A program made the position numbers and the translations under genes. The notes beneath the pieces were generated by a model, which saw only the letters and a list, made by a program, of their open reading frames with translations, was not told the DNA's origin and made no database searches. From the IMG/VR virus record IMGVR_UViG_2734482771_000002: a stretch of 18,233 nt of DNA; one strand, given 5' to 3'. This DNA comes from a virus (lineage: Duplodnaviria; Heunggongvirae; Uroviricota; Caudoviricetes). Position 1 is the first letter of the stretch, and every line of letters starts with the position of its first letter. Of this stretch, positions 1 through 18,233 are shown piece by piece.

Positions 1-195
1 AAAAACTGGATGTTCGCGGGTTCCGACAGCGGTGGTGAACATGCGGCGGTGTTGTACTCGCTGATCGGCACATGCCGTCTGAACAATGTGGAGCCAGAAA
101 AGTGGCTGCGTTACGTCATTGAACATATCCAGGACTGGCCGGCAAACCGGGTACGCGATCTGTTGCCCTGGAAAGTTGATCTGAGCTCTCAGTAA
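1..195 (+). CDS. IS66-family transposase, C-terminal fragment (5' end outside window)
   Basis: Translation ...MFAGSDSGGEHAAVLYSLIGTCRLNNVEPEKWLRYVIEHIQDWPANRVRDLLPWKVDLSSQ* matches the conserved C-terminal tail of IS66 TnpC-type transposases as I recall it; stop at 193-195. Confidence 0.7.
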   Translation, partial: KNWMFAGSDSGGEHAAVLYSLIGTCRLNNVEPEKWLRYVIEHIQDWPANRVRDLLPWKVDLSSQ

Positions 196-225
196 ATATC
201 AATACGGTTCTGACGAGTCGCTTAC
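1..225 (+). mobile_element. Right end of an IS66-family insertion sequence (partial; continues upstream of the window)
   Basis: Frame-1 ORF open to the window edge encodes an IS66-type transposase C-terminus; the element ends ...GAGTCGCTTAC at 219-225, whose reverse complement GTAAGCG is the terminus I recall as typical of IS66-family inverted repeats. Phage U coding sequence resumes in frame at 226. Confidence 0.7.
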
Positions 226-501
226 GTTTATCTCACCGGCGCTGAATACACGGGCGAAGAGCTGGACAGCGATACCTGGCAGGCGGAGCTGCATATTGAA
301 GTTTTCCTGCCTGCTCAGGTGCCGGATTCAGAGCTGGATGCGTGGATGGAGTCCCGGATTTATCCGGTGATGAGCGATATCCCGGCACTGTCAGATTTGA
401 TCACCAGTATGGTGGCCAGCGGCTATGACTACCGGCGCGACGATGATGCGGGCCTGTGGAGTTCAGCCGATCTGACTTATGTCATTACCTATGAAATGTG
501 A
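226..501 (+). pseudogene. U: Tail terminator protein U, 3' fragment truncated by the IS insertion
   Basis: Frame 1 from 226 reads [91 protein letters not shown], the C-terminal part of lambda gpU as I recall it. There is no start codon or RBS at the 5' boundary, which abuts the IS end. Confidence 0.8.
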
Positions 502-508
502 GGACGCT

Positions 509-1249
509 ATGCCTGTACCAAATCCTGTAATGCCGGTGAAAGGTGCCGGGACCACCCTGTGGGTTTATAAGGGAAGCGGTGACCCTTATGCGAATCCGCT
601 TTCAGACGTTGACTGGTCGCGTCTGGCAAAAGTTAAAGACCTGACGCCCGGCGAACTGACCGCTGAGTCCTATGACGACAGCTATCTCGATGATGAAGAT
701 GCAGACTGGACTGCGACCGGGCAGGGGCAGAAATCTGCCGGAGATACCAGCTTCACGCTGGCGTGGATGCCCGGAGAGCAGGGGCAGCAGGCGCTGCTGG
801 CGTGGTTTAATGAAGGTGATACCCGTGCCTATAAAATCCGCTTCCCGAACGGCACGGTCGATGTGTTCCGTGGCTGGGTCAGCAGTATCGGTAAGGCGGT
901 GACGGCGAAGGAAGTGATTACCCGCACGGTGAAGGTCACCAATGTGGGACGTCCGTCGATGGCAGAAGATCGCAGCACGGTGACGGCGACAACCGGCATG
1001 ACCGTGACGCCTGCCAGCACCTCGGTGGTGAAAGGGCAGAGCACCACGCTGACCGTGGCATTCCAGCCGGAAGGCGCAACCGACAAGAGCTTCCGTGCGG
1101 TGTCTGCGGATAAAACAAAAGCCACCGTGTCGGTCAGTGGTATGACCATCACCGTGAAAGGTGTTGCTGCAGGCAAGGTCAACATTCCGGTCGTATCCGG
1201 TAATGGTGAACTTGCTGCGGTTGCAGAAATCACCGTCACCGCCAGTTAA
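509..1249 (+). CDS. V: Major tail protein V (tail tube), with C-terminal Ig-like domain
   Basis: ATG at 509 preceded by GAGGA; [36 protein letters not shown]... matches lambda gpV. The supplied ORF begins 30 nt upstream at 479, but the lambda-like start is 509. Confidence 0.92.
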
Positions 1250-1264
1250 TCCGGGGAGTCAGAG

Positions 1265-1687
1265 ATGTTCCTGAAAACCGAATCATTTGAACATAACGGT
1301 GTGACCGTCACGCTTTCTGAACTGTCAGCCCTGCAGCGTATTGAGCATCTTGCCTGGTTGAAAGAGCAGGAAAAAAAGGCTGAATCCAGTGGCAACCTGC
1401 AGGTGTCTGTAGAGGAGCTTATCAGAGGCGGGGCGTTTCTGGTGGCGATGTCTCTGTGGCATAACCATCCACAGAAGACAAAGCTGCCGTCCATGAATGA
1501 AGCCATTACGCAGATTGAGCAGGAAGTGCTTACCACCTGGCCCACGGAGGCAATTGCTCAGGCTGAAAACGTGGTGTTACGTCTGTCCGGAATGTCTGAG
1601 TTTGTGGTGAATAATGCCCCTGAACAGACAGAGGACGCCGGGCCTGCAGAGCCTGTTTCTGCGGGAAAGTTTTCGACGGTGAGCTGA
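1265..1687 (+). CDS. G: Tail assembly chaperone G
   Basis: 140-aa ORF MFLKTESFEHNGVTVTLSELSALQRIEHLAWLKEQEKK... matching lambda gpG in sequence and in position between V and H. Confidence 0.9.
   Translation: MFLKTESFEHNGVTVTLSELSALQRIEHLAWLKEQEKKAESSGNLQVSVEELIRGGAFLVAMSLWHNHPQKTKLPSMNEAITQIEQEVLTTWPTEAIAQAENVVLRLSGMSEFVVNNAPEQTEDAGPAEPVSAGKFSTVS
1663..1669 (+). other. Programmed -1 ribosomal frameshift slippery heptamer G GGA AAG (G to G-T)
   Basis: GGGAAAG lies in the G frame (codons GGA 1664-1666, AAG 1667-1669) near the 3' end of G. The -1 frame is open from here to the stop at 2101-2103, as in the lambda G/GT mechanism. Confidence 0.8.
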
Positions 1688-2103
1688 GTTTTGCCCTGAA
1701 ACTGGCGCGTGAGATGGGGCGACCCGACTGGCGTGCCATGCTTGCCGGGATGTCATCCACGGAGTATGCCGACTGGCACCGCTTTTACAGTACCCATTAT
1801 TTTCATGATGTTCTGCTGGATATGCACTTTTCCGGGCTGACGTACACCGTGCTCAGCCTGTTTTTCAGCGATCCGGATATGCATCCGCTGGATTTCAGTT
1901 TGCTGAACCGGCGTGAGGCTGACGAAGAGCCTGAAGATGATGTGCTGATGCAGAAAGCGGCAGGGCTTGCCGGAGGTGTCCGCTTTGGCCCGGACGGGAA
2001 TGAAGTTATCCCTACTTCCCCGGATGTGGCGGACATGACGGAGGATGACGTAATGCTGATGACAGTATCAGAAGGGATCGCAGGAGGAGTCCGGTATGGC
2101 TGA
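1669..2103 (+). CDS. T: T-frame portion of the G-T fusion protein (expressed by -1 frameshift from G; full product join 1265..1669,1669..2103)
   Basis: The -1 frame relative to G is open from the slippery site to TGA at 2101-2103 and translates ...GRPDWRAMLAGMSSTEYADWHRFYSTHYFHDVLLDMHFSGLTYTVLSLFFSDPDMHPLDFSLLNRREADEE..., resembling lambda gpT; it ends overlapping the H start. Confidence 0.8.
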   Translation, partial: VFDGELSFALKLAREMGRPDWRAMLAGMSSTEYADWHRFYSTHYFHDVLLDMHFSGLTYTVLSLFFSDPDMHPLDFSLLNRREADEEPEDDVLMQKAAGLAGGVRFGPDGNEVIPTSPDVADMTEDDVMLMTVSEGIAGGVRYG

Positions 2104-4675
2104 ACCGGTAGGCGATCTGGTCGTTGATTTGAGTCTGGATGCGGCCAGATTTGACGAGCAGATGGCCAGAGTCAGGCGTCATTTTTCCGGTACGGAAACT
2201 GATGCGAAAAAAACAGCGGCAGTCGTTGAACAGTCGATGAACCGGCAGGCGCTGGCTGCACAGAAAGCGGGAATTTCCGTCGGGCAGTATAAAGCCGCCA
2301 TGCGTATGCTGCCTGCGCAGTTCACCGACGTGGCCACGCAGCTTGCAGGCGGGCAAAGTCCGTGGCTGATCCTGCTGCAACAGGGGGGTCAGGTGAAGGA
2401 CTCCTTCGGCGGGATGATCCCCATGTTCCGGGGGCTTGCCGGTGCGATCACCCTGCCGATGGTGGGGGCCACCTCGCTGGCGGTGGCGACCGGTGCGCTG
2501 GCGTATGCCTGGTATCAGGGCAACTCAACCCTGTCCGATTTCAACAAAACGCTGGTCCTTTCCGGCAATCAGGCGGGACTGACGGCAGATCGTATGCTGG
2601 TCCTGTCCAGAGCCGGGCAGGCGGCAGGGCTGACGTTTAACCAGACCAGCGAGTCACTGACGGCGCTGGTGAATGCCGGTGTGCGTGGTGGTGAGCAGTT
2701 TGAGGCGATCAGCCAGAGTGTGGCGCGTTTCTCCTCTGCATCCGGCGTGGAGGTGGACAAGGTCGCTGAAGCCTTCGGGAAGCTGACCACAGACCCGACG
2801 TCGGGACTGACAGCGATGGCACGTCAGTTCCATAACGTGACGGCGGAGCAGATTGCGTATGTTGCTCAGTTGCAGCGTTCCGGAGATGAAGCCGGGGCAT
2901 TGCAGGCGGCGAACGAGGCCGCAACGAAAGGGTTTGATGACCAGACCCGCCGCCTGAAAGAGAACATGGGCACGCTGGAGACCTGGGCAGACAGGACAGC
3001 ACGGGCATTCAAATCCATGTGGGATTCGGTGCTGGATATTGGTCGCCCGGACACTGCCCAGGGAATGCTGGAGAAAGCAGAAAAGGCTTTTGATGAGGCG
3101 GACAAAAAATGGCAGTGGTATCAGAGCCGGAGCCACCGGCGCGGTAAAACCTCAGCATTTCTTGCCAATCTCCGGGGAGCATGGGAGGACAGAGCGAATG
3201 CGCAACTTGGGCTTTCAGCCGCCACGTTGCAGGCCGATCTTGAAAAGGCCAGAGAGATGGCAGCAAAGGACTGGGTCGAGTCTGAGGCATCACGGCTGAA
3301 ATATACCGAAGAGGCGCAGAAGGCTTACGAACGCCTGCAGACGCCGCTGGAGAAATATACCGCCCGTCAGGAAGAACTGAATAAGGCACTGAAAGACGGG
3401 AAAATCCTGCAGGCAGATTACAACACGCTGATGGCGGCAGCGAAAAAGGATTATGAAGCGACGCTGAAAAAGCCGAAGCAGTCCGGCGTGAAAGTGTCTG
3501 CAGGCGATCGCCAGGAAGACAGTGCTCATGCTGCCCTGCTGACGCTTCAGGCAGAACTCCGGACGCTGGAGAAGCATGCCGGAGCGAATGAGAAAATCAG
3601 CCAGCAGCGCCGGGATTTGTGGAAGGCGGAGAGTCAGTTCGCTGTACTGGAGGAGGCGGCACAACGTCGCCAGCTGTCCGCACAGGAGAAATCCCTGCTG
3701 GCGCATAAAGATGAGACGCTGGAGTACAAACGCCAGCTGGCTGCACTTGGCGACAAGGTTACGTATCAGGAGCGCCTGAACGCGCTGGCGCAGCAGGCGG
3801 ATAAATTCGCACAGCAGCAACGGGCAAAACGGGCCGCCATTGATGCGAAAAACCGGGGGCTGACTGACCGGCAGGCAGCGCGGGAAGCCACAGAACAGCG
3901 TCTGAAGGAACAGTATGGCGATAATCCGCTGGCGCTGAATAACGTCATGTCAGAGCAGAAAAAGACCTGGACGGCTGAAGACCAGCTTCGCGGGAGCTGG
4001 ATGGCAGGCCTGAAGTCCGGCTGGAGTGAGTGGGAAGAGAGCGCCACGGACAGTATGTCGCAGGTTAAAAGTGCAGCCACGCAGACCTTTGATGGTATTG
4101 CGCAGAATATGGCGGCGATGCTGACCGGCAGTGAGCAGAACTGGCGCAGCTTCACCCGTTCCGTGCTGTCCATGATGACAGAAATTCTGCTTAAGCAGGC
4201 AATGGTGGGGATTGTCGGGAGTATCGGTAGCGCCATTGGCGGGGCTGTTGGTGGCGGCGCATCCGCATCAGGCGGTACAGCCATTCAGGCAGCTGCGGCG
4301 AAATTCCATTTTGCGACCGGAGGATTTACGGGAACCGGCGGCAAATATGAGCCAGCGGGGATTGTTCACCGTGGTGAATTTGTCTTCACGAAGGAGGCAA
4401 CCAGCCGGATTGGTGTCGGCAACCTGTACCGCCTGATGCGGGGCTATGCGGAAGGTGGTTATGTGGGCGGTGCCGGAAGTCCGGCGCAGATGCGGCGGGC
4501 TGAAGGCATTAATTTTAATCAGAACAATCACGTGGTGATTCAGAACGACGGTACGAATGGTCTGCCAGGTCCACAGATGATGAAGGCAGTGTATGACATG
4601 GCCCGCAAGGGTGCCCGTGATGAAATTCAGGCACAGATGCGCGATGGTGGTCTGTTCTCCGGAGGTGGACGATGA
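2096..4675 (+). CDS. H: Tail tape measure protein H
   Basis: 859-aa ORF MAEPVGDLVVDLSLDAARFDEQMARVRRHF..., coiled-coil-rich centre and Gly-rich hydrophobic C-terminal segment; lambda gpH-like. ATG at 2096 overlaps the T stop, and the H stop overlaps the M start (ATGA at 4672-4675). Confidence 0.92.
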   Translation: MAEPVGDLVVDLSLDAARFDEQMARVRRHFSGTETDAKKTAAVVEQSMNRQALAAQKAGISVGQYKAAMRMLPAQFTDVATQLAGGQSPWLILLQQGGQVKDSFGGMIPMFRGLAGAITLPMVGATSLAVATGALAYAWYQGNSTLSDFNKTLVLSGNQAGLTADRMLVLSRAGQAAGLTFNQTSESLTALVNAGVRGGEQFEAISQSVARFSSASGVEVDKVAEAFGKLTTDPTSGLTAMARQFHNVTAEQIAYVAQLQRSGDEAGALQAANEAATKGFDDQTRRLKENMGTLETWADRTARAFKSMWDSVLDIGRPDTAQGMLEKAEKAFDEADKKWQWYQSRSHRRGKTSAFLANLRGAWEDRANAQLGLSAATLQADLEKAREMAAKDWVESEASRLKYTEEAQKAYERLQTPLEKYTARQEELNKALKDGKILQADYNTLMAAAKKDYEATLKKPKQSGVKVSAGDRQEDSAHAALLTLQAELRTLEKHAGANEKISQQRRDLWKAESQFAVLEEAAQRRQLSAQEKSLLAHKDETLEYKRQLAALGDKVTYQERLNALAQQADKFAQQQRAKRAAIDAKNRGLTDRQAAREATEQRLKEQYGDNPLALNNVMSEQKKTWTAEDQLRGSWMAGLKSGWSEWEESATDSMSQVKSAATQTFDGIAQNMAAMLTGSEQNWRSFTRSVLSMMTEILLKQAMVGIVGSIGSAIGGAVGGGASASGGTAIQAAAAKFHFATGGFTGTGGKYEPAGIVHRGEFVFTKEATSRIGVGNLYRLMRGYAEGGYVGGAGSPAQMRRAEGINFNQNNHVVIQNDGTNGLPGPQMMKAVYDMARKGARDEIQAQMRDGGLFSGGGR

Positions 4676-5001
4676 AGACCTTCCGCTGGAAAGTGAAACC
4701 CGGTATGGATGTGGCTTCGGCCCCTTCCGTCAGGAAAGTGCGCTTTGGTGATGGCTATTCCCAGCGAGCGCCTGCCGGGCTGAATGCCGACCTGAAAACG
4801 TACAGCGTGACGCTTTCTGTTCCCCGTTGGGAGGCCACGGCGCTGGAGTCGTTTCTGGCTGAGCACGGGGGCTGGAAAGCCTTTCTGTGGACGCCGCCTT
4901 ATGAGTGGCGGCAGATAAAGGTGACCTGCGCAAAATGGTCGTCGCGGGTCAGTATGCTGCGTGTTGAGTTCAGCGCAGAGTTTGAACAGGTGGTGAACTG
5001 A
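4672..5001 (+). CDS. M: Minor tail protein M
   Basis: 109-aa ORF MKTFRWKVKPGMDVASAPSVRKVRFGDGYSQRAPAGLNADLKTYSVTLSVPRWEA... matching lambda gpM; translationally coupled to H and L. Confidence 0.9.
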   Translation: MKTFRWKVKPGMDVASAPSVRKVRFGDGYSQRAPAGLNADLKTYSVTLSVPRWEATALESFLAEHGGWKAFLWTPPYEWRQIKVTCAKWSSRVSMLRVEFSAEFEQVVN

Positions 5002-5699
5002 TGCAGGATATCCGGCAGGAAACACTGAATGAATGCACCCGTGCGGAGCAGTCGGCCAGCGTGGTGCTCTGGGAAATCGATCTGACAGAGGTCGGTGGAG
5101 AACGTTATTTTTTCTGTAATGAGCAGAACGAAAAAGGTGAGCCGGTCACCTGGCAGGGGCGACGGTATCAGCCGTATCCCATTCAGGGGAGTGGTTTTGA
5201 ACTGAATGGCAAAGGCACCAGTACGCGCCCCACGCTGACGGTTTCTAACCTGTACGGTATGGTCACCGGGATGGCGGAAGATCTGCAGAGTCTGGTCGGC
5301 GGAACGGTGGTCCGGCGTAAGGTTTACGCCCGTTTTCTGGATGCGGTGAACTTCGTCAACGGAAACAGTGACGCCGATCCGGAGCAGGAGGTGATCAGCC
5401 GCTGGCGCATTGAGCAGTGCAGCGAACTGAGCGCGGTGAGTGCCTCTTTTGTACTGTCCACGCCGACGGAAACGGACGGCGCTGTTTTTCCGGGACGTAT
5501 CATGCTGGCCAACACCTGCACCTGGACCTATCGCGGCGATGAGTGCGGTTATCACGGTCCGGCGGTCGCGGATGAATATGACCAGCCAACGTCCGATATC
5601 ACGAAGGATAAATGCAGCAAATGCCTGAGCGGTTGTAAGTTCCGCAATAACGTCGGCAACTTTGGCGGCTTCCTTTCCATTAACAAACTTTCGCAGTAA
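5001..5699 (+). CDS. L: Minor tail protein L
   Basis: 232-aa ORF MQDIRQETLNECTRAEQSASVVLWEIDLTEVGGERYFFCNEQNEKGEPVTWQGRRYQPYPIQ..., with the C-terminal Cys cluster (CGYHG...CSKCLSGC) as in lambda gpL. Confidence 0.9.
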   Translation: MQDIRQETLNECTRAEQSASVVLWEIDLTEVGGERYFFCNEQNEKGEPVTWQGRRYQPYPIQGSGFELNGKGTSTRPTLTVSNLYGMVTGMAEDLQSLVGGTVVRRKVYARFLDAVNFVNGNSDADPEQEVISRWRIEQCSELSAVSASFVLSTPTETDGAVFPGRIMLANTCTWTYRGDECGYHGPAVADEYDQPTSDITKDKCSKCLSGCKFRNNVGNFGGFLSINKLSQ

Positions 5700-5704
5700 A
5701 TCCC

Positions 5705-6448
5705 ATGACACAGACAGAATCAGCAATTCTGGCGCACGCCCGGCGATGTGCGCCAGCGGAGTCGTGCGGCTTCGTGGTAAGCACGCCGGAGCGGGAAAGA
5801 TATTTCCCCTGCGTGAATATCTCCGGTGAGCCGGAGGCGTATTTCCGGATGGCTCCGGAGGACTGGCTGCGGGCAGAAATGCAGGGTGAGATTGTGGCGC
5901 TGGTCCACAGTCACCCCGGTGCTCTGCCCTGGCTGAGTGAGGCCGACCGGCGGCTGCAGGTGCAGAGTGATTTGCCGTGGTGGCTGGTCTGCCGGGGGGC
6001 GATTCACAAGTTCCGCTGTGTGCCACATCTTACCGGGCGGCGCTTTGAGCACGGGGTGACGGACTGTTACACGCTGTTCCGGGATGCTTACCATCTGGCG
6101 GGAATTGAGATGCCTGATTTTCATCGTGAGGATGACTGGTGGCGTCACGGTCAGAATCTCTATCTGGATAATCTGGAGGCCACAGGGCTGTATCAGGTGC
6201 CGTTGTCAGCGGCGCAGCCGGGCGATGTGCTGCTGTGCTGTTTTGGTTCATCGGTGCCGAATCATGCCGCCATTTACTGCGGCGACGGCGAGCTGTTGCA
6301 CCATATTCCTGAACAACTGAGCAAACGAGAGAGGTATACAGACAAATGGCAGCGACGCACACACTCCCTCTGGCGTCACCGGGCATGGCACGCATCTGCC
6401 TTTACGGGGATTTACAACGATTTGGCCGCCGCATCGACCTTCGTGTGA
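5705..6448 (+). CDS. K: Tail tip assembly protein K (JAMM/MPN + NlpC/P60-like), long form
   Basis: 247-aa ORF beginning MTQTESAILAHARRCAPAESCGFVV.... It contains the E...HSHP...S..D JAMM-type motif (EIVALVHSHPGALPWLSEAD) and a C-terminal Cys/His region; the 3' end overlaps I by 103 nt. The classic 199-aa lambda K annotation would begin at the internal Met at 5849. Confidence 0.85.
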   Translation: MTQTESAILAHARRCAPAESCGFVVSTPERERYFPCVNISGEPEAYFRMAPEDWLRAEMQGEIVALVHSHPGALPWLSEADRRLQVQSDLPWWLVCRGAIHKFRCVPHLTGRRFEHGVTDCYTLFRDAYHLAGIEMPDFHREDDWWRHGQNLYLDNLEATGLYQVPLSAAQPGDVLLCCFGSSVPNHAAIYCGDGELLHHIPEQLSKRERYTDKWQRRTHSLWRHRAWHASAFTGIYNDLAAASTFV

Positions 6449-6987
6449 AAACGGGGGCCGAAGCCATCCGGGCGCTGGCCACGCAGCTTCCGTCGTTTCG
6501 CCAGAAACTGAATGAGGGCTGGTATCAGGTGCGCATTGCCGGGCGTGATGCAGGCGAAAATGAATTATCAGCCCGTCTTAATGAACCGCTGGCAAATGGT
6601 GCTGTGATCCATATCGTGCCGCGTCTGGCAGGAGCCAAAAGTGGCGGTGTGTTTCAGGCTGTGCTGGGGGCGGCTGTTATGGCGGTTGCTATATGGATGC
6701 CGGGGGTAGGAATTATGGCGAGTAATCTGCTGTTTTCTCTCGGTGCCAGTATGGTGCTCGGTGGTGTGGCGCAGATGCTGGCACCGAAAGCCAGAACTCC
6801 CCGCACACAGACAACGGATAACGGCAAACAGAACACCTATTTTTCTTCACTGGATAATATGGTTGCCCAGGGCAATGTCCTGCCCGTTCTGTACGGTGAA
6901 ATGCGTGTGGGGTCGCGGGTGGTATCTCAGGAGATCAGCACAGCAGATGAAGGGGATGGTGGTCAGGTTGTGGTGATTGGTCGCTGA
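6346..6987 (+). CDS. I: Tail tip assembly protein I (ubiquitin-like N-terminus, hydrophobic Gly/Ala-rich centre)
   Basis: 213-aa ORF MAATHTLPLASPGMARICLYGDLQRFGRRIDLRVKTGAEAIRALATQLP...GEMRVGSRVVSQEISTADEGDGGQVVVIGR matching lambda gpI; the start lies inside the 3' end of K. Confidence 0.88.
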   Translation: MAATHTLPLASPGMARICLYGDLQRFGRRIDLRVKTGAEAIRALATQLPSFRQKLNEGWYQVRIAGRDAGENELSARLNEPLANGAVIHIVPRLAGAKSGGVFQAVLGAAVMAVAIWMPGVGIMASNLLFSLGASMVLGGVAQMLAPKARTPRTQTTDNGKQNTYFSSLDNMVAQGNVLPVLYGEMRVGSRVVSQEISTADEGDGGQVVVIGR

Positions 6988-7005
6988 TGCAAAATGTTTT
7001 ATGTG

Positions 7006-7030
7006 AAACCGCCTGCGGGCGGTTTTGTCG
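7006..7030 (+). terminator. Stem-loop with trailing T-rich tract between I and J (possible attenuator or partial terminator)
   Basis: AAACCGCC-TGCG-GGCGGTTT forms a perfect 8-bp stem with a 4-nt loop at 7006-7025, followed by TGTCGTTT; it sits in the 60-nt I-J gap. Confidence 0.45.
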
Positions 7031-7047
7031 TTTATGGAGCGTGAGGA

Positions 7048-10000
7048 ATGGGTAAAGGAAGCAGTAAGGGGCATACTCCGCGCGAAGCGAAGGACAACCT
7101 GAAGTCCACGCAGTTGCTGAGTGTGATCGATGCCATCAGCGAAGGGCCGATTGAAGGTCCGGTGGATGGCTTAAAAAGCGTGCTGCTGAACAGTACGCCG
7201 GTGCTGGACAGTGAGGGGAATACCATTATCTCCGGCGTCACGGTGGTGTTCCGGGCCGGTGAGCAGGAGCAGACTCCGCCGGAGGGATTTGAATCCTCCA
7301 GCTCCGAGACAGTGTTGGGTACGGAAGTGAAATACGACACGCCGATCACCCGCGCCATCACGTCGGCAAACATCGACCGACTGCGCTTTACCTTCGGTGT
7401 GCAGGCACTGGTGGAAACCACCTCAAAGGGGGACCGGAATCCGTCGGAAGTTCGCCTGCTGGTTCAGATACAGCGTAATGGTGGCTGGGTGACGGAAAAA
7501 GACATCACCATTAAGGGCAAAACCACCTCGCAGTATCTGGCCTCGGTGGTGGTGGATAACCTGCCGCCGCGCCCGTTTAATATCCGGATGCGCAGAATGA
7601 CGCCGGACAGCACCACAGACCAGCTGCAGAACAAAACGCTCTGGTCGTCATACACCGAAATCATCGATGTGAAACAGTGCTACCCGAACACGGCACTGGT
7701 CGGCGTACAGGTGGATTCGGAGCAGTTCGGCAGCCAGCAGGTGAGCCGTAATTATCATCTGCGCGGGCGTATTCTGCAGGTGCCGTCGAATTATAACCCG
7801 CAGACGCGGCAATACAGCGGTATCTGGGACGGAACGTTTAAACCGGCATACAGCAACAACATGGCCTGGTGTCTGTGGGATATGCTGACCCACCCGCGCT
7901 ACGGCATGGGGAAACGTCTTGGTGCGGCAGATGTGGATAAATGGGCGCTGTATGTCATCGGCCAGTACTGCGACCAGTCGGTGCCGGACGGCTTTGGCAG
8001 CACGGAGCCGCGCATCACCTGTAATGCCTGGCTGACCACACAGCGCAAGGCGTGGGATGTGCTCAGTGATTTCTGCTCGGCGATGCGCTGTATGCCGGTA
8101 TGGAACGGGCAGACGCTGACGTTCGTGCAGGACCGACCGTCGGATAAGGTGTGGACCTATAACCGCAGTAATGTGGTGATGCCGGATGATGGCGCGCCGT
8201 TCCGCTACAGCTTCAGCGCCCTGAAGGACCGCCATAATGCCGTTGAGGTGAACTGGATTGACCCGGATAACGGCTGGGAGACGGCGACAGAGCTTGTGGA
8301 GGACACGCAGGCCATTGCCCGTTACGGTCGTAATGTCACGAAGATGGATGCCTTTGGCTGTACCAGCCGGGGGCAGGCACACCGAGCCGGGCTGTGGCTG
8401 ATTAAAACGGAGCTGCTGGAAACGCAGACCGTGGATTTCAGCGTCGGCGCAGAAGGGCTTCGCCATGTACCGGGCGATGTTATTGAAATCTGTGATGATG
8501 ACTATGCCGGTATCAGCACCGGTGGTCGTGTGCTGGCGGTGAACAGCCTGACCCGGACGCTGACGCTTGACCGTGAAATCACGCTGCCATCCTCCGGTAC
8601 CACGCTGATAAGCCTGGTTGACGGAAGTGGCAATCCGGTCAGCGTGGAGGTTCAGTCCGTCACCGACGGCGTGAAGGTGAAAGTGAGCCGTGTTCCTGAC
8701 GGTGTTGCTGAATACAGCGTATGGGGGCTGAAGCTGCCGAGGCTGCGCCAGCGACTGTTCCGCTGCGTGAGTATCCGTGAGAACGACGACGGCACGTATG
8801 CCATCACCGCCGTGCAGCATGTGCCGGAAAAAGAGGTCATCGTGGATAACGGGGCGCACTTTGACGGCGAACAGAGTGGCACGGTGAACGGTGTCACGCC
8901 GCCAGCGGTGCAGCACCTGACCGCAGAAGTCACTGCAGACAGCGGGGAATACCAGGTGCTGGCCCGCTGGGACACGCCGAAGGTGGTGAAGGGCGTGAGC
9001 TTCCTGCTTCGCCTGACCGTGGCAGCGGATGACGGCAGTGAGCGGCTGGTCAGCACGGCCCGGACGACGGAAACCACTTACCGCTTCACACAACTGGCTC
9101 TGGGGAACTACAGGCTGACAGTCCGGGCAGTAAATGCGTGGGGGCAGCAGGGCGATCCGGCGTCGGTATCGTTCCGGATTGCCGCACCGGCAGCGCCGTC
9201 GCGGATTGAGCTGACGCCGGGCTATTTTCAGATAACCGCCACGCCGCATCTTGCGGTTTATGATCCGACGGTACAGTTTGAGTTCTGGTTCTCGGAAAAG
9301 CGGATTGCGGATATCAGGCAGGTTGAAACCACAGCACGCTATCTTGGCACGGCGCTGTACTGGATAGCCGCCAGTATCAATATCAGGCCGGGCCATAATT
9401 ATTATTTTTACGTTCGCAGTGTGAACACCGTTGGCAAATCGGCATTCGTGGAGGCTGTTGGTCAGCCGAGTGATGACGCATCCGGCTATCTGGATTTTTT
9501 CAAAGGCGAGATAGGGAAAACCCATCTGGCTCAGGAGCTGTGGACGCAGATTGATAACGGTCAGCTTGCGCCTGACCTGGCTGAAATCAGGACATCCATT
9601 ACGGATGTCAGCAATGAAATCACACAGACCGTCAATAAGAAACTGGAAGACCAGAGTGCAGCGATCCAGCAGATACAGAAGGTTCAGGTTGATACAAATA
9701 ATAATCTGAACAGCATGTGGGCTGTGAAGCTGCAGCAGATGCAGGACGGACGCCTTTATATTGCGGGTATCGGTGCCGGTATTGAGAACACCCCCGACGG
9801 CATGCAGAGTCAGGTGCTGCTGGCGGCAGACAGGATTGCGATGATTAATCCTGCAAATGGCAACACAAAACCGATGTTTGTTGGTCAGGGTGATCAGATA
9901 TTCATGAATGAAGTGTTCCTGAAATATCTGACGGCTCCCACCATTACCAGCGGCGGTAATCCTCCTGCATTTTCCCTGACACCGGACGGAAAGCTGACCG

Positions 10001-10545
10001 CTAAAAATGCGGATATCAGTGGCAGTGTGAATGCGAACGCCGGGACGCTCAACAATGTCACGGTAAATGAAAACTGTACAATTAAGGGCATGCTGGAGGC
10101 GACCCAGGTCAGAGGGGATTTCGTTAAAGCTGTATCAAAAGCCTTCCCGAAAAAAGTCGGTACGTGGGGTAACACGGAAACACCAAACGGTACGGTTACA
10201 GTCACCATCAGCGATGATCATAACTTTGACCGCCAGATTATTATTCCGCCCATTATTTTTAACGGTATAGCGTATGACGATCCGGGGAGCGGAAATAACC
10301 CGGGAGGCACGCGATACACGGGTTATGGTTTTGAAGTTCGCAAAAACGGCGTATTAATCGCATCCAGAGAAACTAAAGGGGCCATTCCCGGTAGTTACAG
10401 TGCAGTTATTGATATGCCTAGTGGTGGTGGTAGCGTCACTCTGGAGTTTAAGATTTTCCAGAAAGGCAATCAGGGGGCAGGCAATATCACCGACTGTACG
10501 GTGATTGTGACCAAAAAAGCGGCTTCCGGCATCAGTATTCGTTGA
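7048..10545 (+). CDS. J: Central tail fibre / host specificity protein J (tip attachment protein)
   Basis: 1165-aa [57 protein letters not shown]..., lambda gpJ-like over most of its length (fibronectin III-like repeats); the last few hundred residues appear divergent from lambda J as I recall it. Confidence 0.92.
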
Positions 10546-10565
10546 AATTGTTATAACCCATATAA

Positions 10566-10591
10566 GGGCACCAGAAATGGTGCCTTTTTTA
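10566..10591 (+). terminator. Rho-independent terminator downstream of J
   Basis: GGCACC-AGAAAT-GGTGCC stem-loop (10567-10584) followed by TTTTTT (10585-10590), 21 nt after the J stop. Confidence 0.6.
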
Positions 10592-10614
10592 TTGCAGAAA
10601 AGCGAGAGGTAATT

Positions 10615-11214
10615 ATGCGTAAACTTTATGCCGCCATTTTGTCCGCAGCCATTTGTCTGGCCGTATCCGGTGCGCCTGCATGGGCATCTGAACATCAGTC
10701 CACGCTGAGCGCGGGGTATCTTCATGCCTCGACGAACGTTCCCGGCAGCGATGATCTTAACGGGATTAACGTGAAATACCGTTATGAGTTTACGGACACA
10801 CTGGGGCTGGTGACGTCATTCAGCTATGCAGGAGACAAGAATCGCCAGCTTACCCGTTACAGCGATACCCGCTGGCATGAAGATTCCGTGCGTAACCGCT
10901 GGTTCAGCGTGATGGTGGGGCCGTCTGTGCGCGTGAATGAATGGTTCAGCGCGTATGCGATGGCGGGTATGGCTTACAGCCGTGTGTCGACTTTCTCCGG
11001 GGATTATCTCCGCGTAACTGACAACAAGGGGAAAACGCACGACGTGCTGACCGGAAGTGATGACGGTCGCCACAGCAACACGTCTCTGGCGTGGGGAGCT
11101 GGCGTGCAGTTTAACCCGACCGAATCCGTGGCCATTGATATTGCTTATGAAGGCTCCGGCAGTGGCGACTGGCGCACTGACGGTTTCATCGTGGGTGTCG
11201 GTTATAAGTTCTGA
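10615..11214 (+). CDS. lom: Lom-family outer membrane protein (Ail/Lom/OmpX/PagC beta-barrel family)
   Basis: 199-aa ORF with a signal peptide ([24 protein letters not shown]) and the Lom-type C-terminus ...[29 protein letters not shown]; RBS GAGAGG upstream; located between J and stf as in lambda. Confidence 0.85.
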
Positions 11215-11240
11215 TTAGCCAGGTAACACAGTGTTATGAC

Positions 11241-11268
11241 AGCCCGCCTGTTCAGGCGGGCTTTTTTG
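11241..11268 (+). terminator. Rho-independent terminator downstream of lom
   Basis: AGCCCGCC-TGTTCA-GGCGGGCT perfect 8-bp stem (11241-11262) followed by TTTTTTG. Confidence 0.65.
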
Positions 11269-11278
11269 TGGGGTGAAT

Positions 11279-14200
11279 ATGGCAGTAAAGATTTCAGGTG
11301 TACTGAAAGACGGCACAGGAAAACCGGTACAGAACTGCACAATCCAGCTGAAAGCAAAACGTAACAGCACCGCGGTGGTGGTGAACACGCTGGCCTCAGA
11401 AAATCCGGATGAAGCCGGGCGTTACAGCATGGACGTTGAGTACGGTCAGTACAGCGTTATTCTGTTGGTGGAAGGATTCCCGCCGTCACATGCCGGGACC
11501 ATCACCGTGTATGAAGATTCCCGACCCGGTACGCTGAATGATTTTCTCGGTGCCATGACGGAGGATGATGCCCGTCCGGAGGCTCTGCGCCGTTTTGAAC
11601 TGATGGTGGAAGAGGTGGCGCGTAACGCGTCCGCGGTGGCACAGAACACGGCAGCCGCGAAGAAGTCAGCCGGCGATGCCGGCACATCTGCCCGTGAGGC
11701 GGCAACCCATGCGACTGATGCTGCAGGCTCAGCACGCGCAGCCAGCACGTCAGCCGGACAGGCCGCTTCGTCGGCTCAGTCAGCGTCTTCCAGCGCAGGA
11801 ACGGCATCAACAAAGGCCACTGAAGCGGAAAAAAGTGCTGCCGCTGCAGAGTCCTCAAAAAGCGCGGCAGCTACCAGTGCCAGTGCCGCGAAAACGTCAG
11901 AAACGAATGCTGCAGCGTCACAACAATCAGCAGCCACTTCTGCATCCACCGCGACTACGAAAGCGTCAGAAGCTGCCACCTCAGCCCGGGATGCGTCGGC
12001 TTCAAAAGAGGCGGCAAAATCATCAGAAACGAACGCATCCTCGAGCGCCAGTAGCGCAGCTTCCTCGGCAACGGCGGCAGCAAATTCCGCGAAGGCGGCA
12101 AAAACGTCCGAGACGAACGCCAGGTCTTCTGAGACGGCAGCGGGACAGAGCGCCTCAGCTGCGGCAGGCTCAAAAACAGCGGCTGCGTCGTCTGCCAGTG
12201 CCGCGTCAACAAGTGCCGGGCAGGCCTCAGCCAGTGCCATCGCCGCCGGAAAATCGGCAGAAAGCGCCGCATCATCCGCTTCAACAGCCACAACGAAGGC
12301 TGGCGAAGCCACTGAACAGGCCAGCGCAGCAGCGAGGTCAGCTTCCGCAGCGAAGACATCCGAAACGAACGCGAAAGCGTCGGAAACCAGCGCAGAATCC
12401 TCAAAAACGGCTGCCGCATCGTCCGCCAGTTCGGCGGCGTCATCGGCCTCATCGGCGTCTGCTTCAAAAGATGAGGCGACCAGACAAGCGTCAGCAGCGA
12501 AGGGCAGCGCCACGACGGCATCCACGAAGGCAACAGAGGCTGCTGGCAGTGCGACGGCGGCAGCACAGAGCAAGAGTACGGCAGAATCCGCAGCAACGCG
12601 CGCCGAGACAGCAGCAAAACGGGCAGAGGATATTGCATCCGCTGTGGCGCTTGAGGATGCGAGCACGACGAAAAAGGGGATAGTACAGCTCAGTAGTGCG
12701 ACTAACAGCACTTCCGAGTCACTGGCGGCAACACCAAAAGCCGTTAAGGCCGCGTATGACCTGGCTAACGGGAAATACACCGCACAGGATGCAACGACAG
12801 CACAGAAAGGGATAATCCAGCTAAGCAGCGCGACCAACAGCACGTCTGAAACGCTTGCCGCGACACCAAAGGCAGTAAAAACAGCCTATGACAATGCTGA
12901 GAAACGTCTGCAGAAAGATCAGAACGGTGCGGATATCCCTGGCAAAGACACCTTTACGAAAAATATTGGTGCCTGCCGTGCCTTTGGTGGGTCAGTAAGC
13001 ACAATAACAGGAAACTGGACGACTGCACAGTTTATCGAGTGGCTGGATTCTCAGGGAGCATTTAACCATCCCTACTGGATGTGCAAGGGGTCCTGGTCTT
13101 ATGGCAATAATAAAATCATTACTGATACTGACTGCGGTAATATTCATCTCGCCGGAGCTGTCATTGAAGTAATGGGGATAAAGTCAGCGATGACGATCCG
13201 CATTACCACACCGACCACCTCCACTGGTGGTGGAACAACTAACGCCCAGTTTACCTATATTAATCACGGAACAGATTATTCACCTGGCTGGCGAAGGGAC
13301 TATAACTCCAGAAATAAGCCAACGGCATCAGAGATCGGGGCGTTACCGTCAGGTGGAACAGCAGTATCATCAGTTAATCTGTCTTCAAAAGGTCGGGTAA
13401 CCGCGCTGACAGACAATACGCAGGGGGCAACAGGTCTTGAGTTATACGAGGTGTATAACAACGGATATCCAACAGCGTATGGAAATATCATTCACCTGAA
13501 AGGGATGACAGCCGTTGGCGAAGGTGAGTTACTCATCGGCTGGAGTGGTACAAGCGGTGCTCATGCTCCGGCATTTATTCGTTCACGACGGGATACGACC
13601 GACGCAAACTGGTCGCCGTGGGCGCAGCTTTACACCTCGGCTCATCCTCCTGCAGAGTTTTATCCAGTCGGTGCACCAATCCCGTGGCCATCAGATACCG
13701 TTCCGTCTGGCTATGCCCTGATGCAGGGGCAGACTTTTGACAAATCTGCATACCCGAAACTTGCAGCGGCTTATCCGTCAGGCGTGATCCCTGATATGCG
13801 TGGCTGGACGATTAAGGGCAAACCTGCCAGTGGTCGGGCCGTATTGTCTCAGGAACAGGACGGCATTAAATCGCATACCCACAGCGCCAGCGCATCCAGT
13901 ACGGATTTGGGGACGAAAACCACATCGTCGTTTGATTACGGCACTAAATCCACGAATAACACTGGTGCGCATACCCATAGTTTAAGTGGCAGCACGAATG
14001 CAGCTGGTAATCACAGCCATAGAGATGGCCGTCGATTTAACCCCAGTGTTTTTAAAGATACTTATCAATATGGTTATACAAGCTCAGGTCAAAATACCTG
14101 GGGTGTACAAGGCTCAGTAGGTATGTCTACGGGGTGGTTAGCTAATACCAGTACAGATGGTAATCATAGCCACTCACTGTCCGGCACAGCAGCATCTGCA

Positions 14201-14350
14201 GGTGCACACGCGCATACTGTCGGTATTGGTGCTCATACGCACTCCGTTGCGATTGGTTCACATGGACACACCATCACCGTTAACGCTGCTGGTAACGCGG
14301 AAAACACCGTCAAAAACATCGCATTTAACTATATTGTGAGGCTTGCATAA
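11279..14350 (+). CDS. stf: Side tail fibre protein Stf
   Basis: ORF beginning [30 protein letters not shown]... (ATG 11279; the supplied track starts at the in-frame GTG 11273). It has a long Ala/Ser/Thr-rich low-complexity shaft, duplicated KGI(V/I)[11 protein letters not shown](S/T)LAATPKAVK motifs, and a His-rich C-terminus ([43 protein letters not shown]) of the lambda Stf / T4 gp37 type. Its stop overlaps the tfa start (TAATG). Confidence 0.85.
12674..12892 (+). repeat. Duplicated 29-codon motif inside stf (copies 12674-12760 and 12806-12892, separated by 45 nt)
   Basis: Both copies encode KGI(V/I)[11 protein letters not shown](S/T)LAATPKAVK(A/T)AYD; the nucleotide sequences differ at many synonymous positions while the peptides are nearly identical. 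Confidence 0.8.
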
Positions 14351-14925
14351 TGGCATTCAGAATGAGTGAACAACCACGGACCATAAAAATTTATAATCTG
14401 CTGGCCGGAACTAATGAATTTATTGGTGAAGGTGATGCATATATTCCGCCTCATACAGGTCTGCCAGCAAACAGTACCGATATTGCACCGCCAGATATTC
14501 CGGCTGGCTTCGTGGCTGTTTTCAACAGTGATGAGTCATCGTGGCATCTCGTTGAAGATCATCGGGGTAAAACGGTTTATGACGTGGCTTCCGGCGACGC
14601 GTTATTTATTTCTGAACTCGGTCCGTTACCGGAAAATGTTACCTGGTTATCGCCGGAAGGGGAGTTTCAGAAGTGGAACGGCACAGCCTGGGTGAAGGAT
14701 ACGGAAGCAGAAAAACTGTTCCGGATCCGGGAGGCGGAAGAAACAAAAAACAACCTGATGCAGGTAGCCAGTGAGCATATTGCGCCGCTTCAGGATGCTG
14801 CAGATCTGGAAATTGCAACGGAGGAAGAAATCTCGTTGCTGGAAGCATGGAAAAAGTATCGGGTATTGCTGAACCGTGTTGATACGTCAACTGCACAGGA
14901 TATTGAATGGCCAGCACTGCCGTAG
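14350..14925 (+). CDS. tfa: Tail fibre assembly protein Tfa
   Basis: 191-aa [82 protein letters not shown]... matching lambda Tfa; immediately follows stf. Confidence 0.88.
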
Positions 14926-15022
14926 GGTAAAACATATAAATTCTATAATTAGATGTATCTTTCCATTTACGGCAAGGAAGGGGGCTTGGAAGACGTAAAG
15001 CATCTCACACCGAGATTATTTT

Positions 15023-15613
15023 TTATATGTCAGGTGTCTGAAGTTTTGCTTTGGCTCTTAAAATGGTTTGCCGCGAGGTTTTGAATTCCCGGGCAATGGC
15101 ACTTATACTTACACCTGACTTAATTCGTTCGAATACCACCTGTTTCTGTTCTTCATTTAACACAGGTGGTCGACCAAAACGTTTCCCTGCGCCGCGGGCT
15201 CTTACTATCCCGGAATGAGTGCGTTCAAGTAAAAGGTCTCGTTCAAATTCAGCGACTGCTGAAATTACTTGCATCATCATTTTTCCTGTTGGACTGGTCA
15301 GGTCAATGCCACCCAATGCTAAGCAATGCACTCTGATACCTGTTTCGGTCAGTTGTTCCACTGTTTTCCTGATATCCATTGCATTACAACCAAGGCGATC
15401 CAGTTTTGTCACAATCAATTGATCACCACATTTCAGGCGAGCAAGCAACCGGTTAAAACCAGGACGCTCACTGGTTGCTGCTGAGCCGCTAATGTGTTCT
15501 TCGATTATTTGCTGAGGTTTGATTTTAAAACCTGCACTTTCGATTTCCCGGCGTTGATTTTCGGTGGTCTGATCCAGCGTTGATATCCGACAGTAAGCAA
15601 AAATTCGAGACAT
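15023..15613 (-). CDS. pin: Serine recombinase, Pin/Gin/Hin-family DNA invertase
   Basis: 196-aa [32 protein letters not shown]... with the resolvase/invertase N-terminal catalytic-serine motif (YCRISTLDQ) and a C-terminal HTH ([22 protein letters not shown]). Convergent with tfa, as in the Rac/Qin/e14 arrangement. Confidence 0.88.
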
Positions 15614-15929
15614 AGTGAGACTCTATACGAAATTGGTGTTCATATCATAATGCATCTCAGAAAATAATTATGATTATTTTTGTGCATATTTGTATGTACA
15701 CGTTCGAAAATAAACGAATGCGTATGCAACCCCGTAATTTTGGTGAGACCCAAAATCGATTTTGTGAAAAATGGCTTTAACTCGGTTTGTTTTTCGAGTT
15801 CCGGGCGGACTCAAGGAAGAAGAATAGTGTTGCGTGTTATTTTAACCAGATTTCAAGTTGTTTGGTCGTGGAAAAGTGGAGCAAAATGTTGTTAAAGTGG
15901 AAAAATGATAAAAAAGTAAGTTTATTATA

Positions 15930-16163
15930 TTACATTTTACCATTTAAATTTTGGTTGTCTTTAAGAACTGATATCGCTGTTTGTAATAATTCTTTGTTAT
16001 CCAGCCATGATTTTTTCTTTATGTTTCCTTCAATGTAATCAAGCAATGTTCTGGTATTGATAGGTCTTCCCTGTTTTGCTACTTCCACTACAGCATCCCC
16101 TAGGATAATTCTTACTTCAGGAAGCTGCGCAGGGAACCACTTTAGGGTGTCTTTTGATTTCAT
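15930..16163 (-). CDS. ydfK: Small YdfK/YnaE-like protein (DUF1398-type, cold-shock-associated prophage gene)
   Basis: Minus-strand ORF; the supplied 88-aa version (to 16196) starts MKINNILRNIFMKSKDTLKW..., while the internal Met gives a 77-aa product MKSKDTLKWFPAQLPEVRIILGDAVVEVAKQGRPINTRTLLDYIEGNIKKKSWLDNKELLQTAISVLKDNQNLNGKM. The call rests mainly on synteny (pin-ydfK-ydfJ as in the K-12 Qin end) and size; the start codon is uncertain. Confidence 0.6.
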   Translation of the reverse strand: MKSKDTLKWFPAQLPEVRIILGDAVVEVAKQGRPINTRTLLDYIEGNIKKKSWLDNKELLQTAISVLKDNQNLNGKM

Positions 16164-16667
16164 GAAGATATTCCTTAAAATATTATTGATTTTCATTGCG
16201 ATATTGTATGTCTGATTCAGGATATGTTGACTTATACATCGGTTTTGTCTGGGTTATTGGATATGCCAATCCCTAATTTTATTAGGGCATGACTAAAAAT
16301 GCTGAATATGATAAGGAGAGATGTGATTATCAGTATGCTGTTCATATAGCCTCGAATTAGTAATGTGTTATATATGATATAGTTGACAATTTTTATCTTG
16401 GGTGTTCTTAAAGTTCGTAGATAAACATTGTCGTTTCAGGTATACAGGAATGCTAACAGGTGGCAGCAAAAATCAGGCGGTTTATGGCGCAAGCTGAAGC
16501 GGCAACTGTAAACTATCTTATGCAGAGACTCTACACGGATTGGGTTTAAAAGTATACATAGATAACAGTTTTTATCTGAAAAAGAAAAATATCAAGGTGA
16601 TATAGCCTATATGCCTTTGATGCGGAGGAATGAATGTGATGGGAGTGATGTATCTGAATAGTTGAAA

Positions 16668-16705
16668 AACCGCAGACACGCCTTATGCAAGAACGTGCTG
16701 CGGTT
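16668..16705 (-). terminator. Strong hairpin, terminator-like when read on the minus strand
   Basis: AACCGCAG-A-CACG [13-nt loop] CGTG-CTGCGGTT (12 bp of stem with one bulge). On the minus strand the hairpin runs directly into a TTTTT tract (complement of the A-run at 16665-16669); on the plus strand no immediate T-run follows. Confidence 0.4.
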
Positions 16706-16949
16706 GGCTGGTAAATTTTTCGATAGTGTGAGTATTGAATGATTTCCAGCCGTTCTTGATTTTACGCATAAATCCATGAAAAAACTACTTATCTGTTGGG
16801 GAGTTTTTTTTGGGGCATATATGGGACAGAAATAGGCCCCAGATAGACACTGAGATCGAACTTAGGATGCTTTTTAAAAAATGCAACTATCTGAAAAAAC
16901 CTAGAAAACGCCAAGGAAACCACAGGATGGGAAAAAACACCTGTGAATT

Positions 16950-18233
16950 ATGGATTTCCAGTTATATTCGCTCGGCGCAGCGTTAGTGTTTCATGAAATA
17001 TTTTTTCCTGAATCATCAACGGCAATGGCGTTAATTCTGGCAATGGGAACCTATGGTGCAGGTTATGTGGCGCGTATTGTCGGAGCATTTATTTTCGGCA
17101 AAATGGGCGACAGAATAGGGCGTAAAAAAGTGCTCTTTATTACCATCACCATGATGGGGATCTGTACCACCTTAATTGGAGTGTTACCGACCTATGCACA
17201 GATTGGTGTTTTTGCACCCATCTTGCTGGTGACGCTGCGTATTATTCAGGGATTGGGTGCAGGTGCGGAAATTTCCGGTGCCGGTACGATGCTGGCGGAA
17301 TATGCGCCAAAAGGTAAGCGCGGAATTATCTCCTCATTTGTGGCTATGGGAACTAACTGCGGAACCTTAAGCGCAACGGCAATCTGGGCCTTTATGTTCT
17401 TCATTCTCAGTAAAGAGGAACTGCTGGCGTGGGGATGGCGTATACCGTTCCTGGCGAGCGTTGTCGTGATGGTCTTTGCTATCTGGTTGCGTATGAATCT
17501 GAAAGAAAGCCCGGTCTTTGAGAAGGTTAACGACAGCAACCAACCGACAGCAAAACCTGCACCTGCTGGTAGCATGTTCCAGAGCAAATCCTTCTGGCTG
17601 GCAACAGGGCTGCGTTTTGGTCAGGCGGGTAACTCCGGTTTAATTCAGACTTTCCTTGCAGGCTATTTAGTACAGACGTTATTGTTTAACAAAGCAATTC
17701 CAACAGATGCATTGATGATCAGTTCGATTCTCGGCTTTATGACCATTCCGTTCCTTGGTTGGTTATCCGATAAAATTGGTCGCCGGATCCCGTATATTAT
17801 TATGAATACCTCTGCGATTGTGCTGGCGTGGCCAATGCTTTCTATCATCGTAGATAAAAGCTATGCCCCGAGCACCATTATGGTTGCACTGATTGTGATT
17901 CATAACTGTGCGGTGCTGGGATTATTTGCTCTGGAAAACATTACCATGGCAGAAATGTTCGGCTGTAAAAACCGCTTTACCCGGATGGCTATTTCAAAAG
18001 AAATTGGTGGTCTTATCGCTTCCGGTTTTGGTCCTATCCTGGCGGGTATTTTCTGCACCATGACGGAATCCTGGTATCCGATCGCCATTATGATCATGGC
18101 ATATTCAGTAATTGGTTTAATCTCTGCGCTGAAAATGCCAGAGGTGAAAGACCGTGATTTAAGTGCGCTGGAAGACGCTGCGGAAGATCAACCGCGTGTT
18201 GTAAGAGCTGCGCAACCTTCCAGAAGTCTGTAA
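16950..18233 (+). CDS. ydfJ: MFS transporter of the metabolite:H+ symporter type (YdfJ-like), apparently 5'-truncated
   Basis: 427-aa ORF MDFQLYSLGAALVFHEIFFPESSTAMALILAMGTYGAGYVARIVGAFIFGKMGDRIGRKKVLFITITM... with many hydrophobic helices. Its first residues align to the conserved (E)WYDF.LYG...FFP box that in ProP/ShiA-type transporters sits about 25-35 residues from the N-terminus, so the true N-terminus appears missing. In-frame stop at 16944-16946 just upstream; stop at 18231-18233. Confidence 0.8.
   Translation: MDFQLYSLGAALVFHEIFFPESSTAMALILAMGTYGAGYVARIVGAFIFGKMGDRIGRKKVLFITITMMGICTTLIGVLPTYAQIGVFAPILLVTLRIIQGLGAGAEISGAGTMLAEYAPKGKRGIISSFVAMGTNCGTLSATAIWAFMFFILSKEELLAWGWRIPFLASVVVMVFAIWLRMNLKESPVFEKVNDSNQPTAKPAPAGSMFQSKSFWLATGLRFGQAGNSGLIQTFLAGYLVQTLLFNKAIPTDALMISSILGFMTIPFLGWLSDKIGRRIPYIIMNTSAIVLAWPMLSIIVDKSYAPSTIMVALIVIHNCAVLGLFALENITMAEMFGCKNRFTRMAISKEIGGLIASGFGPILAGIFCTMTESWYPIAIMIMAYSVIGLISALKMPEVKDRDLSALEDAAEDQPRVVRAAQPSRSL

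Follow-up and report, generated by a model that had tools for sequence, protein, structure and literature searches.

Rac, located at the 5' end of ttcA, and e14, located at the 3' end of icd, are examples of site-specific integration within genes, with the phage att bringing in a partial copy of the host sequence; a figure legend of PMC6379469 ascribes a variant TtcA N-terminus to Rac and a duplicated pseudo-icd' region to e14. The same paper states that integration of Qin at the 5' end of ydfJ cost the gene its promoter and 28 N-terminal codons. Nakamura et al. 2021 (PMC8112680) described lambdoid prophages in ydfJ (PPydfJ) of STEC and other E. coli, comprising many phages that use an 18-19-bp att. 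The truncation of ydfJ is therefore known: it has been published (Ramisetty & Sudhakari 2019; Nakamura et al. 2021), is flagged by PGAP, and is contained in the K-12 annotation.

The DNA analysed here (the window, 18,233 nt) is a piece of an E. coli chromosome, and its ydfJ part has a match in every one of the collection's 5426 complete E. coli genomes. We consider it practically certain that a Qin-type lambda-like ('PPydfJ') phage integrated into ydfJ and thereby produced a 5'-truncated gene. Strain PRO_A-1374-6M-A_ESBL, which covers 97% of the window with 98% identity, was the source of the gene names. The features of the window are as follows.

1-16345, + strand (pinQ, ydfK and ynfT on the - strand): right-hand part of a Qin-type lambdoid prophage, from ORFs and the annotation of the relative
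within this part, + strand: tail module with major tail protein, G/T, tape measure (2096-4675), M, L, K, I and J (7048-10545)
10615-11214, + strand: lom
11273-14350, + strand: stf, side tail fibre, 1025 aa
14350-14925, + strand: tfa
15023-15613, - strand: pinQ
between pinQ and the arm, - strand: ydfK and ynfT
16346-16947, no strand: non-coding right prophage arm between ynfT and the core, with no annotated gene
16927-16986, + strand: junction-spanning small ORF, MGKNTCELWISSYIRSAQR and a stop, with its ATG at 16927, a phage start and an out-of-frame end in ydfJ
16941-16958, no strand: extended imperfect 18-nt att, CTGTGAATTATGGATTTC in the window versus CTTGAATTTATGGATTTC in the host
16948-16958, no strand: exact 11-bp core TTATGGATTTC, common to attB (empty site), attR (window) and attL
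16950-18233, + strand: 5'-truncated ydfJ, MHS-family MFS transporter, native codons 29-455 and the stop codon

The ORF at 16950-18233 encodes 427 aa from an ATG, and its product begins with MDFQLYSLGAALVFHEIFFPE. This product matches the intact 455-aa YdfJ of strain M217 (WP_000151243.1) at 100% identity over residues 29-455, and this exact identity with a known gene excludes a chance origin of the observation. The frame is closed on its 5' side by TGA 16944-16946, which is followed by one Ile codon and then by the ATG (...HL-stop-IMDFQLY...). Judged from the alignment, ATG 16950 is the native internal Met29 codon of ydfJ, lying within the att core. As the ORF starts at native residue 29, the window copy is a 5'-truncated ydfJ and no intact member of the MHS family. 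A sequence-only reading of the window had picked out this ORF, the stop before it and the small peptide starting at ATG 16927, all of which are present, and had supposed that around 30 N-terminal residues are missing in comparison with the family. Residue 2 of the ORF aligns at profile position 37 of ShiA, 40 of ProP and 37 of PRK10406, hence about 30 family-typical residues are indeed absent, and the 455-aa YdfJ proves this directly. The remaining part scores as a whole protein of the MHS family (TC 2.A.1.6), with 453.5 bits for the TIGR00883 metabolite/H+ symporter model (above the cut-off of 443.45; profile positions 7-400 of 400), and it matches Pfam MFS_1 at E = 2.6e-37. What the window ORF lacks, compared with full-length members, is the N-terminal half of TM1 (...AAVSGWLGTALEF) that precedes MDFQLY. 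At the same coordinates of near-identical loci PGAP gives the label 'ydfJ: MHS family MFS transporter YdfJ, incomplete; missing N-terminus'. The annotations are in conflict here, as b1543 of NC_000913.3 is an ordinary CDS with no pseudogene flag, while PGAP calls the gene a pseudogene in other strains. The gene order rspA-rspB-ydfJ-ydfI-ydfZ-rspR identifies the gene as ydfJ also by synteny; ydfI lies 3' of ydfJ in all near-identical loci and is visible only in these relatives, since the window itself stops at the ydfJ stop codon.

The junction was defined by aligning three sites with one another: attB of strain M217, attR of the window and attL of K-12. The core TTATGGATTTC is present in all three and the flanks join seamlessly, as in a lambda-type insertion. 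On the evidence of this alignment, strand exchange must have fallen within these 11 bp. Going leftward, the similarity to host ydfJ stops at 16941 and the phage arm lies beyond; in the search for the junction in empty-site genomes the match begins at window 16944 and extends only to the right, and everything to the left of around 16948 is prophage DNA. These boundaries place the junction within a few nucleotides of 16950, where it had been expected, with att at 16941-16958, and this span fits the '18- or 19-bp att sequence' that the S7 Fig legend of PMC8112680 gives for ydfJ prophages; the study also reports a PCR-derived attP for a ydfJ prophage of strain 11368. The host att copy CT-TGAATTTATGGATTTC, encoding L-E-F-M-D-F, and the phage-derived CTGTGAATT-ATGGATTTC match imperfectly: a 1-nt indel shifts the phage-derived GAA-TT into another frame, and TGA 16944-16946 is phage-derived and lies inside the extended att. 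The faint likeness of the small peptide's '...ELW' to the missing part of the transporter motif is consequently real, being an out-of-register phage copy of the host L-E-F-M codons. The small ORF itself lies inside a longer ORF (16810-16986) in a frame other than that of ydfJ; AAGGA is found 8 nt 5' of its ATG, with an anti-SD duplex of -5.4 kcal/mol, unremarkable among all ATGs of the window, and the ORF is probably fortuitous.

By analogy with the lambda-type att organisation, the segment 16346-16947 may be regarded as the P arm of attP. Each of the two phage arms contains GGGGCA motifs, at 16800-16830 of the window (TTGGGGCATATATGGGAC, around 140 nt to the left of the core) and at 3630-3665 of locus L008 (TATGGGGCATGGTTGGGGCAA, around 70 nt to the right of the core in attL, where the integrase gene has its 3' end). 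These motifs are candidates for arm-type binding sites of the integrase.

A synthetic empty site, made by joining the K-12 rspB-side flank and ynfP codons 1-31 to the window from 16959 onward, matched as one piece in 2007 of 5426 complete E. coli genomes (37%), and in two of them the identity was 100% over all 415 nt. The reconstructed site thus joins both flanks seamlessly with complete identity, the opposite of what would have spoken against integration, and nothing was found against either integration or truncation. The gene order at the empty site is rspA-rspB-(57 nt)-ydfJ-(88 nt)-ydfI, with ydfJ of 1368 nt (455 aa, WP_000151243.1). The window-type attR junction was found in 3169 of the 5426 genomes (58%). 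In some of these, e.g., O157:H7 (H92-H94), the phage arm is only around 90% identical, which indicates on sequence grounds that different lambdoid phages use the ydfJ site. The phage-ydfJ junction of the window recurs with identical sequence in the representative genome of Escherichia ruysiae (L014, NZ_CABVLQ010000001.1); going by this junction, use of the ydfJ site, or inheritance of the prophage, is not confined to E. coli proper.

The truncation would have been contradicted by intact orthologues that begin, like the window ORF, at this Met and have no additional N-terminal segment. The opposite was found when they were aligned, as the segment is present in E. coli and at least 20 other enterobacterial genomes. 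YdfJ homologues from Citrobacter, Enterobacter, Leclercia, Klebsiella, Raoultella, Salmonella arizonae, Kosakonia, Kluyvera and others align from residue 1, the enterobacterial segment ...DL(V/I)(K/R)AA(V/L)SGWLGTALEF stands directly before MDFQLY, and AAVSGWLGTALEF in the lost segment is almost invariant across Enterobacteriaceae. Two further records deserve mention. The site in NZ_CP180600.1 (L003 3122-4489) is empty and uninterrupted, yet ydfJ is flagged there as a pseudogene for an internal stop, so the gene can be lost without a prophage too. A contig labelled 'MAG: Caldithrix sp. isolate CR04bin15' (SMXE01000224.1, L012) contains a truncated E. coli ydfJ with 100% protein identity; its junction is the K-12-type variant of locus L013 (upstream frame MLFKKMQLSEKT and a stop), with a 1-nt indel further upstream relative to the window, and the contig is almost certainly E. 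coli contamination or a result of mis-binning.

The far end of the window's own prophage falls beyond the window and is known from relatives only. In K-12, ynfP encodes 36 aa (MTIEKHERSTKDLVKAAVSGWLGTALEFMDFKSHAC) on the ydfJ strand, beside rspB and the intQ pseudogene, and contributes residues 1-31 of intact YdfJ; the cryptic prophage Qin of K-12 MG1655, with annotated limits of 1632277..1652745, shares 9 nt with ydfJ and 18 nt with ynfP. The closest relative, PRO_A-1374-6M-A_ESBL, has attL with an identical ynfP, followed by genes for a site-specific integrase and an excisionase, and rspB adjoins. The integrase gene beside attL is intact in this strain and the prophage spans around 64 kb. 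An integrase gene next to att is therefore found in both relatives, as the intQ pseudogene in K-12, in a region lying beyond the window. The N-terminal ydfJ codons are 20 kb off in K-12 and around 64 kb off in PRO_A-1374, so the 5' fragment that had been predicted at the far prophage end is indeed there, beside rspB and an integrase gene. The far end of the window's prophage would accordingly read rspB, 57 nt, a ynfP fragment ending ...GAATTTATGGATTTCAAGAGTCATGCGTGTTAA, and an integrase gene. YnfP is among the small proteins detected in K-12 (PMC6001520), hence the native ydfJ translation start still works at the far end.

The arrangement is best explained as follows. A tyrosine integrase recombined a temperate phage with the chromosome at the 11-bp core, within an 18-19-nt att that covers ydfJ codons 25-31. 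The window represents the right junction, attR, with phage DNA up to around 16947 and host ydfJ codons 29-455 from the core on. Small indels in the phage att copy place TGA 16944-16946 in frame, and the N-terminus is not regenerated; because of this phage-side stop, Met29, a native internal codon, opens the longest ORF. Codons 1-28, the native start and the upstream rspAB remain at attL, where the 28 codons together with five phage-derived ones form the 36-aa ynfP. Precise excision, given an intact integrase, would be expected to restore ydfJ. The identity to residues 29-455 and the att alignment bear out the proposal of the sequence-only reading that ydfJ was the integration target, and fix the 5' truncation at exactly 28 codons.

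As to the remaining content of the window, a search for inverted repeats that could delimit an invertible segment around stf/tfa/pinQ gave short, weak pairs only, and the Rfam scan of 15500-18233 returned no match. In PRO_A-1374-6M-A_ESBL (NZ_CM136175.1, L006 17242-29436) an insert of around 11 kb interrupts the major capsid gene of the prophage, leaving two partial CDSs. This insert encodes its own tyrosine integrase, DNA primase, SSB, major capsid and head decoration protein and looks like a satellite or a second mobile element.

The consequences of the truncation for the transporter are less straightforward. The 427-aa YdfJ could be expressed from Met29, with the phage arm providing the promoter or through read-through, as a shortened and possibly altered transporter, in which case the gene would be remodelled and still active. 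We regard such expression as unlikely, despite several observations in its favour. The truncated ORF is uninterrupted and perfectly preserved, encodes exactly the amino acids of the intact allele and differs from K-12 by 14 synonymous changes, and there is no sign of relaxed constraint: dN/dS is around 0.015 against the truncated E. ruysiae copy and is as low for truncated copies as for intact ones. The K-12 reference annotation retains the CDS. In one screen the Keio ydfJ deletion (K-12) was mildly azithromycin-resistant, and the level of ydfJ RNA responded when DicC was induced. In PMC10971958, K+ is tabulated as a YdfJ substrate, marked with an asterisk; no primary source for this K+ annotation could be traced. 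Preservation of the ORF would follow equally from frequent prophage gain and loss, with 37% of genomes having an empty site, and the low dN/dS seems to fit a functional gene and a recently or repeatedly interrupted one equally; the phenotype from a single screen may be polar on ydfI, or noise.

Structure and signals also argue against expression of a working transporter. The near-invariant AAVSGWLGTALEF that was lost makes up the first half of TM1, including E27 of the E-x-x-D-F motif. Its placement in the first transmembrane helix comes from alignment to the structure of a fungal phosphate transporter of weak similarity (E = 3.5e-5), the best hit of a PDB sequence search that revealed no close MHS structure, so the TM1 boundaries are inferred only; Kyte-Doolittle hydropathy was uninformative on TM1. 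A sigma-70 and terminator scan of 15600-17200, with overall counts equal to the shuffled expectation, gave no promoter-like site on the + strand at 16181-16950, i.e., in the 770 bp before the ATG, and the neighbours directly upstream (ynfT, ydfK and pinQ) are on the opposite strand. Anti-SD duplex energies indicated no Shine-Dalgarno sequence at ATG 16950 better than at the average ATG of the window; these energies do not discriminate between the two ydfJ starts, truncated and native, and that of the small junction ORF. Two motifs that PMC3946193 places where RNA polymerase binds between 'ydfI' and 'ydfK' were considered as a promoter of truncated ydfJ and rejected, as both are inside the ydfJ coding region, at 18135-18163 (+ strand, toward ydfI, near the ydfJ 3' end) and at 17325-17352 (- strand). 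Judging by the position of the former motif, transcription of ydfI might start from a promoter of its own and not depend on rspAB. With the conserved half of TM1 lost, the upstream rspAB region a whole prophage away, and no promoter-like or Shine-Dalgarno signal, it is plausible that the truncated transporter is either unmade or non-functional while the prophage sits in ydfJ.

The prophage physically separates ydfJ-ydfI from rspAB. The products of rspA, rspB and ydfI reportedly form an L-gulonate pathway. It is conceivable that excision and integration act as a switch ('active lysogeny') of ydfJ-ydfI versus rspAB, or that an altered 427-aa protein is made from Met29 under the phage arm; taken jointly, these proposals seem very improbable to us, as what speaks for them is the intact truncated ORF and two weak hints in the literature. 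If the switch were true, an excision-competent ydfJ prophage would reconnect and disconnect ydfJ-ydfI from the rspAB sugar-acid genes.

A short ORF caused by a local frameshift or point mutation in a contiguous ydfJ, with no phage insertion, which had been offered along with a junction near 16950, has a negligible probability, since the 1-nt difference between GAATTATGG (window) and GAATTTATGG (host) is frameshift-like locally, but the host similarity ends at 16941, the upstream DNA is the phage arm, then ynfT, ydfK, pinQ and tail genes, and the true N-terminal codons lie 20 kb (K-12) or around 64 kb (PRO_A-1374) away beside an integrase, which already refutes it and leaves the junction standing.

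Integration of a Qin-type phage into ydfJ has practical implications. The 427-aa 'YdfJ' annotated in K-12 and in around 58% of complete E. coli genomes is a prophage-truncated product, and the real protein has 455 aa. Screens with ydfJ clones or deletions of K-12 use the truncated allele, and any inference of function for the rspAB/ydfJ-ydfI cluster should allow for the separation of ydfJ-ydfI from rspAB by a prophage.

Among the known systems, the PPydfJ prophages possess T3SS effector loci and nested prophages, none of which is visible in the window, and O157:H7 genomes share the ydfJ junction of the window with a phage arm that is around 90% identical. Qin of K-12 is in the same host gene (b1543), with the same 427-aa ORF (no amino-acid differences), the same core and the ynfP remnant; its phage arm is 99% identical to the window over 16800-17100, and the order of ynfT, ydfK, pinQ, tfa and stf is the same. 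The one difference is in completeness: Qin is a remnant of 20.5 kb in which stfQ is truncated and the tail module is missing, whereas the prophage of the window has a complete lambda-like tail set. The products of icd and ttcA stay functional after integration of e14 and Rac. In contrast to Rac and e14, the phage copy at ydfJ is out of frame and brings in a stop, so that 28 codons of the host gene are lost.
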